From positions 1 to 29,365 of the IMG/VR virus record IMGVR_UViG_3300005805_000331: 29,365 nt of DNA; one strand, 5' to 3'. How positions within the stretch are numbered: the stretch's first letter is position 1; the number at the start of each line of letters is the position of its first letter. The position numbers and the translations under genes are program-made. The DNA comes from a virus. Taxonomy: Duplodnaviria > Caudoviricetes. The notes beneath the pieces are model-generated. The model saw only the letters and a program-made list of their open reading frames with translations, was not told the origin of the DNA and searched no databases. Shown here piece by piece: positions 3,243 to 19,876 of this stretch.

Positions 3243-3270
3243 GAAAAAAAGAGCCCAATTAAGGGCTCTT
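3243..3270 (-). terminator. Intrinsic terminator
   Basis: AAGAGCCC-ttaatt-GGGCTCTT followed by a T-run. Confidence 0.8.
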
Positions 3271-4100: not shown

Positions 4101-4130
4101 AATAAAAGAAAAGGGCTATTCCAAGCCCTT
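4101..4130 (-). terminator. Intrinsic terminator containing the stop codon of 4116..4376
   Basis: AAGGGCT-tggaat-AGCCCTT followed by TTCTTTTATT. Confidence 0.75.
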
Positions 4131-4376
4131 AAAACTCTCATCTAATGGTTCAGGCTCCTCATGAATAGCATCATATTCAGTGAGCAATCTTCCCCATTGA
4201 TAAATAAGATCTGTCATCTCATCATTTAATTCCTCCCATCTGGTTTTATCCTTTCCAGGAGGAATCTCATTCCAAGACCCATTAAATCTCTTTAATTTAG
4301 TGATAACTTGTATCACCTCAGCACATTCTTCTGCCAAGGCTAGTGCTGAATCGCCTTCATCTTTGAACTTTCCCAT
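4116..4376 (-). CDS. MazG-like nucleotide pyrophosphohydrolase
   Basis: LAEECAEVIQ...EELNDEMTDL: EExxE and ExxD helices typical of all-alpha NTP-PPases. Confidence 0.7.
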   Translation of the reverse strand: MGKFKDEGDSALALAEECAEVIQVITKLKRFNGSWNEIPPGKDKTRWEELNDEMTDLIYQWGRLLTEYDAIHEEPEPLDESFKGLE

Positions 4377-4435
4377 ATATTATTTATTAATGAATAAAAA
4401 GAAAGAGCCCAACATATATCAGGCTCTACATGATG

Positions 4436-4711
4436 TTATAGATCAATTTCCTCATAATTGACAGTTTTACCTGCCAATTTAATTATTTGCTCTAATTCTT
4501 CCCAAAGATCGTCTGGTTCACTATGTGTTCCATTTGAGCCAACAAGCTCAAATAAAAACTCTTTACAATCATCATCTCCTATTCCATACACCTCAATACT
4601 CCATTCTCCACCACCAACAGCATGTGTTGTGGTGTCTAAAACTCCATTTGGATTAAGCTGGAAAAATTGTTTCATAACTCTAACTTCGTAATTGGTTGGT
4701 AACACTTGCAT
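4436..4711 (-). CDS. Hypothetical protein
   Basis: ORF track; followed by hairpin 4404-4427 and a T-run. Confidence 0.75.
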   Translation of the reverse strand: MQVLPTNYEVRVMKQFFQLNPNGVLDTTTHAVGGGEWSIEVYGIGDDDCKEFLFELVGSNGTHSEPDDLWEELEQIIKLAGKTVNYEEIDL

Positions 4712-4740
4712 AATTTGGTTTTTTTTTGTGAATGAATAAT

Positions 4741-4930
4741 TTCCCTCTGCACTCAGATGTAATAAATACCGAACTTTCTTACCTGCAAGTTGACTCTTTC
4801 TTGCTATCAGTGGTATCGTGGATTATTTACTACATCTGTCAGCCCTTGGGAAGCTGAAATGGTGCATTAAAAGAATGTGTTTTCAATTCCATTAGCTTAT
4901 ATACACATTCAATGCCTTGCTATGTAAGGC
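4741..4930 (-). ncRNA. Candidate structured RNA (multi-stem junction with possible pseudoknot)
   Basis: Nested complementary segments: 4748-4752/4862-4866, 4754-4768/4824-4838 (14/15), 4785-4789/4800-4804, 4839-4843/4853-4857; loop 4848-4852 complementary to 4741-4745; no ORF in the track. Confidence 0.5.
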
Positions 4931-4934
4931 AATA

Positions 4935-5124
4935 AAAGAGCCCTGTTACAGGCTCTCTAAATACCTAACTTCTTGTCTACCATCTTCATAAGCAATAAGA
5001 ACAGCAATTTTATCCTTATGCTCAATAGATGGATAGATGGAAATAATCTTAAATGTAATAGATGAATGAATTGTCATGTCTATTGGTTTAAATGAATAAA
5101 AGAAAGAGCCCTGTTACAGGCTCT
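4935..5124. repeat. Identical 22-nt direct repeat AAAGAGCCCTGTTACAGGCTCT (4935-4956 and 5103-5124), each a terminator-like hairpin
   Basis: Exact match by eye; related hairpins at 4404-4427 and 7218-7241. Confidence 0.9.
4946..5077 (-). CDS. Small hypothetical protein (43 aa, not in ORF track)
   Basis: MTIHSSITFKIISIYPSIEHKDKIAVLIAYEDGRQEVRYLESL*; TAAACCAATAGAC leader; stop lies inside the 22-nt repeat. Confidence 0.6.
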   Translation of the reverse strand: MTIHSSITFKIISIYPSIEHKDKIAVLIAYEDGRQEVRYLESL

Positions 5125-5410
5125 TATAATGTATCCTCATATAGGAATAAAACATTTGCTCTTGAATAACATTCCAGATGTTACCCAAATAGATACCAAA
5201 TCTATCCACAACAGGAATAGATGATACACTGTTACACATCTGTCTGTAATTCTTCATTGTAACTGAATCAATGTAAGAATCACCTACATATATGTTTATC
5301 CTCAACTCCTCAGAGAAATCATCTAATATTGCTGTAAGACAAGGATCTTCTGTTGTAACAGGAATAATACATCCTTCTGTATAAACTCCTGTAGATAAAA
5401 ATGTACTCAT
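5114..5410 (-). CDS. Hypothetical protein (98 aa)
   Basis: Start reassigned to MSTFLS at 5410, behind AAAACCATATAACC; stop lies inside the 22-nt repeat. Confidence 0.7.
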   Translation of the reverse strand: MSTFLSTGVYTEGCIIPVTTEDPCLTAILDDFSEELRINIYVGDSYIDSVTMKNYRQMCNSVSSIPVVDRFGIYLGNIWNVIQEQMFYSYMRIHYKSL

Positions 5411-6042: not shown

Positions 6043-6140
6043 CGTTTTTCGATTTAAATGTTAAGAAATAATAATACACTATACAGGAAAAAAGGTTTTA
6101 GGATGGATGGTGGGCAAAAAGGGGAATGCACTTATTCCCC

Positions 6141-6608: not shown

Positions 6609-6714
6609 AATAAATTATTTAATGTGTGTTAGAAGGTTTTAGGATGAATAACACACAGCCTGTGTGTATACATATATATAAGGGAGGAGAATAAATTCTC
6701 CCCCCTATTAAAAA

Positions 6715-7578: not shown

Positions 7579-7636
7579 AATATTTGATTTTATGGCTGTT
7601 AAAAGGTTTTAGGATGAATGATAAGAGATTACGCAA

Positions 7637-7804: not shown

Positions 7805-7867
7805 AAGGTTTAATTTAAGGCTGTTAGAGAGTTTTAGGATGAATGACAGACGCTCCATGTAAAGAAT

Positions 7868-8933: not shown

Positions 8934-9342
8934 GCCTATAAGCATGTCCGTTAAGGACTATCTAATAAGGAAGCTGTCTGTCAGTCTTATGATGAGTGAG
9001 AAGACAATAGAGGCAATTGTCAACCACCAGTTTCGTTCAGCCAACATTGCTCTTCAGGATAATAACACAGTGGAAATCAGTGGCTTTGGGAAGTTTCATT
9101 TCAATTACAATAAGGCTGTAAGGAAGATGGAGAAGATGGTGAGCAAAGCCAATTTGTTCTATTCCCAGGTGAATAATATGGAGCTTACAGAACAGAAGAG
9201 AAATTCGTCAGCTAACAAGTTAGCCAACACATTAGCACAGATAGAAGCATTAAAACCAAAACTAAATGTTGAACATCAGCCAGATTTACGAGGGATGGAG
9301 GAACAAGTTGATTCCCCCAGCACACTTGAAGGAGCAAATTAA
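8926..9342 (+). CDS. HU/IHF-like DNA-binding protein
   Basis: IEAIV...ALQDNNTVEISGFGKF, the HU/IHF signature. Confidence 0.75.
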   Translation: MDKPISMSVKDYLIRKLSVSLMMSEKTIEAIVNHQFRSANIALQDNNTVEISGFGKFHFNYNKAVRKMEKMVSKANLFYSQVNNMELTEQKRNSSANKLANTLAQIEALKPKLNVEHQPDLRGMEEQVDSPSTLEGAN

Positions 9343-9994: not shown

Positions 9995-10282
9995 ATGAGC
10001 AGGAAACCAAATTATTATAATCAGGTGATTGCCATTCTACAAGAACTACATACTGTCTACCCACAATACAACTTAGGAAGACACATTGCTACAGCTCTTG
10101 ATGGATATGGTGATGCTTGGGGAATTACAGACAAGGAATTGTTATTTGCCTTTACAAAATACAAAGGAGAGCTTGAGCTAGATGTTCCCCATACAGATGA
10201 TCAGGAATTAGATCAGATTATAAAGGAAGGACTAGACCTAGAAAACATGTTTAAAGAGGAAGAAGATGGCGACAACTATTAA
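9995..10282 (+). CDS. Hypothetical protein
   Basis: ORF track. Confidence 0.75.
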   Translation: MSRKPNYYNQVIAILQELHTVYPQYNLGRHIATALDGYGDAWGITDKELLFAFTKYKGELELDVPHTDDQELDQIIKEGLDLENMFKEEEDGDNY

Positions 10283-17173: not shown

Positions 17174-18739
17174 ATGGCAATTCAAACAATCCCAGGTTTA
17201 ACTGGATTTACGTATGCTCGTGTTGCTTCAATGGACAAGCGTGCTGTAGGTAAGCTTACAGATGCCAACCACCTTGAAAGCTTCCACAGCACAGAGCCTG
17301 CTGATTATGACAAAAAGATCATCAGCCTCTACACTCAAAGCTCATTGTATAGCAATGACTTCTTGGACATGATTAACAAGAGCACGCCTTACTACATCGA
17401 TAATAATAGCGATGCATGGAAGTGGCAAGTGCAAGTTCCTTACAAGTTTCCAAAAATCATTGACATCCCAACATCTACTGTAGACATCATCGAAGGTAGT
17501 GGTAAAGTGGGTATTGATGGACAAGAGTTCGCTCTTATTTTGGATACAAACGAGTTCTCTAAGAATGCAATTATTTCTGTAGGTTCTCGTCAGTATGGTC
17601 CTCGTTTCTACGTTATTAAGGATCCAGTTCCTTGGAACATGGGCTACCTTTATTATTTCACGCTCGTAAGTGATAACCCTACAGTGGATTTTGTATCTCC
17701 TACATTCCTTCAGTATGGTATTGAACTTGAGCTTGTTGATGCTGCAATTGGTGAATTCGATCAAGATCTTTTAGGTCTTCCTCGTTTGGGTGAGCAAATC
17801 ACTATGTTTGAATCTCTTGGTTCTGCATATGGTTATGAGCACAAAATCACTGAGTGGGCTGATGACAAAATGATGGTTGATGCTTCTGGCAAACCTCTAG
17901 ACATCTTGGTTTATGCTCCACAGCGTAGGAACCAACTTCCTCTAACAAGGAACGATGTTAAATGGGAACCATTCATCGAGTTCTGGATGCGTAAGTCTAT
18001 GCTTGAATTGAAAGTTAAGCGTATGATTTGGAGCAAGCCTGGAACAGTTAAAACAAATGGTTCTAAGCAAGAATTGAAGCGTACATCTGCTGGTGTTTAC
18101 CACAGAATGCGTAACAATGGTAACTTGGTTCAATATAACCGTGGTGAATTCACTGCAAACCTAATACGTTCTGTATTTGGTGATCTATTCTACAGAAGGG
18201 TGGATGTGAAAGACCGTAGGGTTAAAATGTATACTAATGAAGCTGGATTTGACGTATTCCAACAAGCTTTGAAGAATGACGCTTTGAACAGTGGTCTTAC
18301 ATTCATGGCTGATTCTGGAAATCGTTACATGCAAGGCGAAGGTCAGCACATCACTTATAACTTTGCATTCGATGCAATGGTTACACGTGAAACTGGTCGT
18401 GTTGAGTTGATTCACTTGAAAGAGTTGGATCTTCCACAATCTAACCTTGAATTCGGTCAGAACAAGAAATCTACTCCTGTATTCATGGTGTTTGATGTAT
18501 CTCCAATGAGCGATGGTTCAATGGTGAACAACATCCGTGAAGTGAGGATGAAGGGTGCTCCTTCAATGACTTGGGGATATATCGATGGAACTCGTCACCA
18601 CTTAGGCTTTGCTAAGTCTCAGGGTATGAGCTCTGCTAACAAATTCCCTGGTTATGAGATTTGGATGAAAGACCGTTGCGATGTGTTCATTGAGGATTTG
18701 TCTCGTACAGTTCTTATTGAGGAAATCCCACAATTCTAA
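17174..18739 (+). CDS. Major capsid protein
   Basis: 521 aa, strongly biased codons (CGT, TTC, AAC, ATC), position in the terL-portal-scaffold-MCP block. Confidence 0.85.
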   Translation: MAIQTIPGLTGFTYARVASMDKRAVGKLTDANHLESFHSTEPADYDKKIISLYTQSSLYSNDFLDMINKSTPYYIDNNSDAWKWQVQVPYKFPKIIDIPTSTVDIIEGSGKVGIDGQEFALILDTNEFSKNAIISVGSRQYGPRFYVIKDPVPWNMGYLYYFTLVSDNPTVDFVSPTFLQYGIELELVDAAIGEFDQDLLGLPRLGEQITMFESLGSAYGYEHKITEWADDKMMVDASGKPLDILVYAPQRRNQLPLTRNDVKWEPFIEFWMRKSMLELKVKRMIWSKPGTVKTNGSKQELKRTSAGVYHRMRNNGNLVQYNRGEFTANLIRSVFGDLFYRRVDVKDRRVKMYTNEAGFDVFQQALKNDALNSGLTFMADSGNRYMQGEGQHITYNFAFDAMVTRETGRVELIHLKELDLPQSNLEFGQNKKSTPVFMVFDVSPMSDGSMVNNIREVRMKGAPSMTWGYIDGTRHHLGFAKSQGMSSANKFPGYEIWMKDRCDVFIEDLSRTVLIEEIPQF

Positions 18740-18907: not shown

Positions 18908-19876
18908 ATGGGTAAAACAGGAAAAATCTCCACAATTAAGAAGGAGTATAATAGCTCTCAGTTGCAAACAATGCAAAGCGGTTTAGCTGCTAAAGGTCTA
19001 ACAAGAATCCCTGGAACAGGCGTATTTAAGTATCCTTACAAGGAACTTGATGGTCAATACAGAACAGGACTTGATCCAAATGCTGCTTACATTCGTAGAA
19101 TAAATGATCCTCTAGAAAGGGACATGGAGAAAGAAAGAGTGACAGCTCTTCGTGAAAGACTTCAGAATTCTCTTGGAGGAGTTGATTTAGGACCTAGATC
19201 TCAATTCTGGAACTATGGACTTTCAACATCTACAAGTGATACATTGCATGTGCAACCTGTAAAACTGATTGATGGAGACAATTATTTTGATTTGTCTGTT
19301 CCTCTACAAGAATTAGCCTTTGCATGGCTTAGAGTTCATCCAACAATTGCAAGCTCTTATCAAGCTTGGGAGCGTGGTGAATTTCCAGCTGACACACAAT
19401 TCTATGTAGCAGATGATGAGATTGAAAATGCTGTAATCTTCAAGAAGAAACAATTAATCAACAAGGCTATTGCTAAGTTTGATGCAATGACTCCTGAGAA
19501 GAAGCGTAAGGTAGCTCGTCTATTAGGACTTCCAGTAACAGAAGAAACTAAAGAAGAAGCAGTGTATAACCAAGTGGATAATGTTTTGAAACAAACAGAA
19601 TTCAAGAATGGTAAATATCAAGGCCTTTCTACAGTTGAGGTGTTCAACAGATTTGCTGATATGAAGGAAAACCTTCTCCACATCAAAGATCTAGTTAAAC
19701 AAGCAATTGGTCATTCAGTGTATAGGGTTAAACCTAATGGAAGAATTTACGAAGGTGAATTTGAAGTGGCTACAGATGAAGATGAATTGGTTAGATATTT
19801 GGCAGACGATGATAATCAAGATGCCCTGATTACCCTAGAACAAAGATTAAAAAGTAAAAAACTGGCAGCTGTATGA
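18908..19876 (+). CDS. Conserved crAss-like protein following the MCP
   Basis: 322-aa ORF; synteny; FYVADDE...K motif. Confidence 0.7.
   Translation: MGKTGKISTIKKEYNSSQLQTMQSGLAAKGLTRIPGTGVFKYPYKELDGQYRTGLDPNAAYIRRINDPLERDMEKERVTALRERLQNSLGGVDLGPRSQFWNYGLSTSTSDTLHVQPVKLIDGDNYFDLSVPLQELAFAWLRVHPTIASSYQAWERGEFPADTQFYVADDEIENAVIFKKKQLINKAIAKFDAMTPEKKRKVARLLGLPVTEETKEEAVYNQVDNVLKQTEFKNGKYQGLSTVEVFNRFADMKENLLHIKDLVKQAIGHSVYRVKPNGRIYEGEFEVATDEDELVRYLADDDNQDALITLEQRLKSKKLAAV

Follow-up and report, generated by a model that had tools for sequence, protein, structure and literature searches.

We analysed a 29,365-nt stretch of viral DNA (hereafter the window), a 29-kb piece of the IMG/VR virus record IMGVR_UViG_3300005805_000331 (Duplodnaviria, Caudoviricetes) with an estimated completeness of 25%, and identified on its minus strand, at positions 4872-4740, a structured RNA element whose parts can be placed on the type-P1 twister ribozyme, the second pseudoknot being rewired. 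The original prediction, made from the letters of the window, had placed a pseudoknotted RNA at this position without recognising its family. As judged from comparative sequence analysis, the element is real and conserved; it varies a known kind of ribozyme, carries an exchangeable payload and is predicted to cleave. According to the explanation that we favour, this twister-derived RNA probably cuts itself between U4869 and A4868, freeing a unit that contains the insert of its P5 arm and the downstream gene. Cleavage by the element as such appears quite likely.

The fold in the window is real. None of 200 shuffled sequences was as stable as the region 4741-4930 (z = -3.19) or as the 137-nt core at 4738-4874 (z = -3.90). 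The stems named in the original prediction were found where it had placed them on the minus strand: P2 (TGCAC 4866-4862, five pairs with GTGCA 4752-4748), P4 (TCAGC 4857-4853 with GCTGA 4843-4839, closing a 9-nt loop at 4852-4844, the whole hairpin spanning 4857-4839) and the long stem with its single G-U pair, which is the 15-bp basal stem of P5 (4838-4824 with 4768-4754, pair probabilities 0.82-1.0, within the P5 arm at 4838-4754). The pairing GCAAG/CTTGC (4804-4800/4789-4785), thought to cap this stem directly, sits 19 and 16 nt further in, within the tip (4823-4769) that is replaced in homologues. Two parts had been overlooked, an outer stem (P1), in which three U (4872-4870) pair with 4742-4740, and the UAA/GA internal loop (L1) holding the twister catalytic positions, the 5' side of which is at 4869-4867. 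The 3' strand (4753-4740) is composed of the linker A4753, the 3' strand of P2 (4752-4748), G4747, A4746, the GGG of the pseudoknot T1 (4745-4743) and the 3' strand of P1 (4742-4740). In the P4 loop, U4852 and G4844 form a predicted U·G closing pair, followed by U4851 and A4846, the CCC of T1 (4850-4848), A4847 and G4845; from the twister map, G4845 is predicted to form the one remaining pair of the second pseudoknot, T2, with C4861.

As originally noted, the loop is complementary to 4745-4741 and an ATG is present at 4711. Of the 5-bp pseudoknot proposed on this basis, CCC/GGG stands as T1, but the A's that follow GGG are assigned to the outer stem with U4870-4872 because this stem covaries in homologues. 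A longer T1, with four or five pairs, was rejected, the extra bases covarying with the upstream strand. A model restricted to nested pairs, applied to a 261-nt context, was divided, giving CCC/GGG a pair probability of 0.63 and P2/P4 one of about 0.3, and the fold therefore rests on covariation and not on energy alone. The two hairpins predicted upstream are present (4910-4903/4880-4873 and 4931-4926/4918-4913) and both appear in the predicted fold, but they do not belong to the conserved unit. They form an optional 60-nt module (4931-4873, minus strand, with hairpins at 4931-4913 and 4910-4873), the second hairpin occupying the position of P0. Contigs of sequencing runs X9 and X10 miss this module, joining 4872/4873 to 4934, and inspection of eight close relatives revealed it in none; it is present with few changes in contigs of runs X4, X6 and X10.

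Homologues were collected with an exact pattern of the 5' half in a viral collection (about 280 stretches matched, 120 of them among the matches listed), with a broader pattern in metagenomes (about 900 stretches matched, 121 among the matches listed) and with relaxed patterns in which P2 (119 loci), both pseudoknots (112) or position 4862 (89 loci, 47 of them real) were freed. We parsed 239 distinct elements, mostly from viral contigs with a few from genome contigs, and kept 12 odd or mis-parsed ones in the counts. The alignment A1 contains 64 sequences picked from 116 candidates that were short or bore variants; variants are therefore over-represented in it, and its counts are per sequence, not independent events. 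In A1, 93.8% of the cells are paired, against 79.4% after shuffling and 33-50% in slid controls, and 22 of the 29 pairs show double-sided change.

Across these sequences, covariation is seen in P1, P2, P4, P5 and T1. Positions one to four of P1 are paired in 184, 162, 163 and 145 of the 239 elements, each above all 500 shuffles, the fifth position not being so, and P1 is 71.5% paired in A1; this stem is described as dispensable for twister activity in passages of PMC5408937. All five P4 pairs show double-sided change and the basal pairs of P5 covary. In T1, which is 100% paired in A1, C-G is replaced by A-U at two positions (12/239 and 17/239). With compensatory changes in homologues, folding that beats shuffled controls and no Rfam match on the window, the conserved pseudoknotted RNA of the original prediction is upheld.

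The order of the parts resembles that of a type-P1 twister, and this likeness was tested against the features described in passages of PMC5408937. The element shares with this type (RF03160) the order and pairing of P1, L1 (N/AA, the slash marking the cleavage site, and GA), P2, P4, a U...AA loop and a three-pair T1, together with an optional P5 and P0 and the lack of P3, as in the rice ribozyme (PMC5408937, PMC5113685, in part). Placed on the anatomy given there (PMC5408937), the predicted scissile bond lies between U4869 and A4868; A4868 would be the general acid, G4747 is the predicted general base, and A4867 would form a sheared pair with G4747. Several search patterns fixed the catalytic letters, and conservation, which is at the sequence level only, was counted separately in sets where these letters were free. 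N/AA is present in 55 of the 57 compact elements found via the P5 stem alone, and GA after P2 in 136 of the 148 elements retrieved with patterns of the 5' half, as well as in 105 of 114 metagenome elements, the misses including mis-parsed ends. Twister-sister was rejected as the parent fold: it has no pseudoknot and cleaves the opposite loop strand, according to passages of PMC5408937, whereas here T1 covaries, and no Rfam match to it was obtained.

The departures from the canonical twister concern P2, T2 and the closure of the loop. Type-P1 twisters are described with a four-pair P2, a T2 with conserved GC and a near-invariant G-C loop closure (PMC5408937, in part); the window family has a five-pair P2, a pyrimidine followed by C at T2, a U·G closure and, in addition, an expanded form. 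Its P1, catalytic L1 letters and T1 are those of a type-P1 twister. In twisters, P4 is lengthened by a G-C that is essentially invariant and by a non-canonical U·A; of this hallmark the family keeps a covarying P4 as well as the U and the A, but its loop is closed by U·G. The fifth P2 pair (4862-4752) is C-G in 189, U-A in 42, U·G in 3 and unpaired in 5 of the 239 elements, and is paired in 102/102 well-parsed metagenome elements; since 4862 covaries with 4752, P2 has five pairs. The canonical T2 partner of 4862, position 4844, stays G. The pair 4862-4844 shows double change once in A1, against 14 times for the fifth P2 pair, and is mismatched (C·A) in 3 of the 102 metagenome elements. A canonical two-pair T2 is therefore not supported, its outer pair barely covarying and being broken in these three elements. 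The T2 positions read CC or UC instead of the conserved GC, and 4861-4845 is C-G in 239/239. The loop-closing pair 4852/4844 is U·G in 237 and U-A in 2 of the 239 compact forms, and C-G in 9, U·G in 2, U-A in 1 and C·A in 1 of 13 expanded forms; the viral collection gave 0 matches for a non-U first loop base with C at 4862. The simplest model for these sequences appears to have five pairs in P2, a single pair in T2 and a loop that is shorter by one base.

The same counts bear on a regulated twister, in which the fifth P2 pair would be the off state and T2 of the active state would contain both C4862-G4844 and C4861-G4845, the switch being a protein, a partner RNA on the tip or folding kinetics. 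Position 4862 is able to pair with 4844 in 239/239 elements of the viral set (C-G 194, U·G 43, U-A 2), and passages of PMC5113685 suggest that a P2 extension is inhibitory in the canonical fold. We nevertheless consider such regulation quite improbable, in view of the near lack of double change at 4862-4844, of the three C·A mismatches and of the inactivity of the same C-G arrangement in the rice twister (relative activity 0.06; PMC5113685, in part).

P5 was detected in every parsed element, but the descriptors demanded it; its length is about 45-143 nt (5th-95th percentile). The 218 distinct P5 tips fall into 168 clusters, the tip of the window being a singleton. P5 tips have been exchanged between cores, as demonstrated by the clustering of their sequences: 26 of the 30 shared tip clusters are found on more than one core type. 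In lake contigs, the tip of the window is replaced by inserts of 27 or 35 nt, and neighbouring ORFs (open reading frames) are skipped or swapped. The tips fold modestly (median z -0.73). A tRNA-like cargo was rejected, the T-loop motif being found in 1 of 168 cluster representatives and tRNA calls in 0 of 218 tips. The P5 inserts behave as portable payloads.

The expanded form carries two further conserved stems with variable tips inside P4, after its 5' strand and before the loop, giving a larger junction with three payload sites. It accounts for 13 of 20 elements that have an intact 5' strand but are not compact by a strict pattern. It was observed in L583, L028, L541, L560, L584, L589, L600, L612, L613, L617, L620, L627 and L649, and the start of another lies downstream of L525:2039. 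Closed look-alikes were also found, in which L1 is turned into a plain helix, most of them also being without the loop and T1; this loss suggests that the catalytic core can be separated from the rest. The same or nearly the same tips occur in intact and closed frames in the examples inspected (L011/L582, L026/L574, L203/L707 and L187/L571), and tips are found again in expanded frames too. Closed look-alikes lie near intact elements at L524:2740-2883 (-), L526:2192-2316 (+), L527:2571-2687 (+), L528:1555-1641 (-) and L523:11187-11346 (+), where the three-way frame and the P5 stem are kept, the end being fully paired and/or the catalytic loop gone.

A number of results weigh against an active twister in the window. 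Rfam 15 gave nothing relevant on the window at either gathering or E-value level, RF03160 had no match on the record itself nor on five other whole records, and six further short homologues, scanned in small pieces, showed no twister match. In favour of a twister, one short homologue has twister-P1 as its best Rfam match, in an alignment that covers both strands of L1 (19.2 bits, E = 0.049; the cut-off of RF03160 is 67.2). The element fails three defining twister features as well as this cut-off, and we therefore class it as a twister variant and not as a member. The invariance of 4861-4845 places it beyond the reach of covariation, so that T2 pairing is only inferred. Furthermore, a scan with the P5 stem alone retrieved 106 distinct elements, 50 of which are compact twisters by the strict pattern and 56 of which fail it; the latter include some intact forms that are expanded or vary mildly. 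Roughly one in two elements with the P5 stem is thus no compact intact twister, and the payload therefore does not always depend on the core.

The mutagenesis of the rice twister Osa-1-4 (PMC5113685) adds to these points: the A40C mutant, in which the authors suggest that P2 is extended by one pair, has a relative activity of 0.09, swaps of the outer T2 pair leave 0.06 (G13C/C31G) or 0.02 (G13U/C31A), and a loop-closing C-G (G23C/C32G), the commonest state in our expanded forms, leaves 0.08. In the CHiTA study (bioRxiv 10.1101/2024.07.11.603121, in part), the pseudoknot corresponding to T2, called PK1, is two nucleotides long in all tested twisters, an imperfect PK1 harms cleavage and twisters with a P0 hairpin cleave less (0.40 vs 0.85). 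Since comparable changes nearly abolish cleavage of the rice twister, activity cannot be assumed here. The same two sources also contain support for it: rice twisters closed by U·G (G23U/C32G) or U-A (G23U/C32A) keep 0.29 and 0.48 of the activity (PMC5113685, in part), and all tested twisters with a P5 arm, a small sample, cleaved above 0.80 (bioRxiv 10.1101/2024.07.11.603121, in part). The rice set, as far as described, included no deletion, and the full combination found in the family lies outside it (PMC5113685).

That changes fixed in the family are nearly lethal singly in the rice twister (PMC5113685, in part), and that closed, non-catalytic frames bear the same tips as intact ones, would fit a twister-derived scaffold that cleaves very slowly or not at all and serves as a nuclease block, a protein-binding site or a frame for the variable stem, the RNA ends being produced by nucleases of the host or the phage. 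This alternative seems unlikely to us: the unpaired U/AA and GA are conserved in the unbiased sets, including the U before the cut, a nucleotide that makes nearly no contacts in the twister structures described in passages of PMC5408937, and for such a scaffold the closed helix would already suffice, without a T1 kept under compensatory change.

In the self-cleaving variant that we favour, the fifth P2 pair would take the stack position of the canonical outer T2 pair. The loop would be one nucleotide shorter inside its U·G closure, with one C-G left of T2, so that the helix stack would retain six pairs and the active site could still form. The RNA would fold co-transcriptionally and be cut after U4869 with G4747 as base and A4868 as acid, as in twister, a 2',3'-cyclic phosphate and a 5'-OH being the presumed ends. 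The product on the 3' side would open with a tightly folded core 157 nt before the ATG, show the P5 insert and run into the 91-aa ORF (4711-4436, minus strand), which would ride on it. An early transcript would in this manner be cut into pieces, with a structured 5' end for both the payload RNA and the downstream mRNA. Where copies are in tandem, as in L700 (three copies about 225-240 nt apart), cuts would free unit-length RNAs. The conserved stem arms probably also act as recombination points for the swapping of inserts.

Regulation of the downstream gene, by ligand sensing or otherwise in cis, is suggested by the conserved loop nucleotides and by a pseudoknot ending about 30 nt before the ATG, and in 33 of 77 elements an ORF begins no more than 60 nt downstream. 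The 44 ORFs starting at most 120 nt downstream, however, form 35 unrelated clusters, and a riboswitch is therefore highly improbable; the neighbouring ORF is moreover bypassed in a relative (a contig of run X3 joins 4376 to 4729, without the 91-aa ORF), the element occurs in tandem, and its conserved nucleotides coincide with the catalytic positions of twister. Among the functions originally proposed (cis-regulatory, self-cleaving or small RNA), self-cleavage fits best, and the unrelated downstream ORFs speak against a gene-specific riboswitch.

In Schistosoma mansoni, the T-variants of twister, whose P1 varies with the flanks, process the RNA downstream at its 5' end; these are eukaryotic retrotransposon elements defined by P1, and the passages of PMC8501958 that describe them mention neither a rewired T2 nor exchangeable inserts. 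Hatchet ribozymes (RF02678) are found about 0.9-1.6 kb upstream of our elements on the same strand in 3/20 loci and 3/50 genomes (L002/G006 being in both). They share phage regions and strand, a long variable loop and a cut near their own 5' end with the window family, but have an unrelated fold, and the window element has no hatchet match. In the crAss-like L523, a hatchet, a twister variant with a strong hairpin and U run behind it, a transfer-messenger RNA and tRNAs lie within 11 kb (8955-9089, 10039-10203, 17188-17584 and 19664-19830). Bacterial ribozyme clusters near phage-related genes similarly bring several classes together, and processing of polycistronic transcripts has been suggested for them; the reason for the clustering is called unknown in the passages concerned (PMC10085705, PMC6765202), whereas here the frame carries an exchangeable payload. 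Judged by title or opening, none of the literature retrieved describes the five-pair-P2 form, although some members may already be in published alignments.

It is possible, and we put it forward tentatively, that in aquatic crAss-like phages an active rewired twister divides a single early transcript into units that are protected and bear one to three payloads each. Hundreds of payload types would be shuffled through recombination between the conserved stem arms and would affect the host by antisense or decoy action. If so, a twister would be active although its P2 has five pairs and its T2 only one, an arrangement predicted to be dead by canonical mutagenesis. Hundreds of natural sequences fix changes that are near-lethal singly in the rice twister, which points either to a second way of building the active site or to a ribozyme fold kept without catalysis. 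Twister chemistry has been well studied, and reviews describe the role of these ribozymes in bacteria and phages as unknown; a swappable insert within arrays of small phage genes and RNAs leads to the testable idea that phage ribozymes release functional small RNAs. The family also shows that Rfam has a gap, which a single new model would fill.

The model built from our elements (R1) found between one and three copies in 49 of the 50 long viral records to which it was applied, these having been selected. A relative of the capsid protein of the window is encoded in 39 of the 50 (19 of the 22 near-complete ones), with 95-97% identity in eight, 35-36% in six and 22-29% in the rest; given this range, the element spans distant clades. 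Most of the carriers examined are crAss-like phages. In an annotated phage collection, four matches of 25-28 nt were obtained, which is chance level. Species genomes yielded 84 pattern matches, mostly due to chance, with three full elements and one 5' half among them, and a crAss-like capsid gene accompanies the element in three of five genomes tested. In the Sediminibacterium bin (L364/G056:C14) and the Chitinophagaceae bin (L360/G055:C153), these capsid genes are 96% and 27% identical to that of the window. R1 was found in 1 of the 101 genomes of the family of G056, namely G056 itself. These binned contigs give a weak hint of a host in the Chitinophagaceae, mis-binning being equally possible. 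A second short structured and conserved sequence was noticed about 1 kb downstream of the element in L036:2478 (+), L034:2622 (-) and L048:2462 (-), the positions being those on the named strand.

In a PHROGs search, the terminase, portal and major capsid protein of the window corresponded to PHROGs 6681, 6547 and 11589, which we take to be markers of crAss-like phages. The metagenomes best matching the window are from lake water, and one of them may be its source. The element is surrounded by small ORFs, most of them without family, on the strand opposite to the structural genes; this layout, together with passages of a Crassvirales review (PMC10136315), suggests that its transcript is early. 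None of 20 sequencing runs checked is listed as RNA, which says nothing on expression, and a promoter scan returned 19 sites for 20.7 expected by chance.

The loop of the second upstream hairpin (4902-4884, minus strand) resembles the end of a CRISPR repeat. A search of 301 genomes from one candidate host family revealed no CRISPR array matching it (at most three scattered matches per genome; other families were not searched), and among viruses its sequence gave four matches, none with the hairpin or a ribozyme in the flanks examined. An RNA anti-CRISPR, i.e. a solitary CRISPR repeat, was thus rejected, there being no matching repeat array in this host family.

The 91-aa ORF has no PHROGs family and a single Pfam match below the cut-off (E = 0.045). 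Comparison of upstream regions revealed, between the element and this ORF, an A-rich leader (4739-4712, minus strand) beginning TTATTCATT. It is shared by the leaders of three other ORFs (at 5077, 4376 and 4072), in which a hairpin, and not the ribozyme, precedes it. The ORF at 4376-4116 (minus strand) encodes a small MazG-like nucleotide pyrophosphohydrolase (PHROG 4856, E = 6e-7; its Pfam match is below the cut-off), and in one relative the ribozyme lies directly upstream of the MazG-like gene. A detector that proved too crude to be relied on gave terminators for 2/77 elements, against 12/385 random places. Between 3000 and 8200 of the window, 16 terminator-like hairpins were found, compared with 2.7 in shuffles. 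GC-rich hairpins with U-rich tails recur between the small ORFs (3249-3270, 4111-4130, 4404-4427, 4931-4960, 5104-5125 and others to 7903), and contigs of relatives join at the hairpin spacers between small ORFs, which suggests cassette shuffling. A 20-nt motif is repeated four times on the minus strand (6090-6109, 6631-6650, 7601-7620 and 7826-7845) before the first small ORFs of the minus-strand array and is a candidate phage promoter or processing signal.
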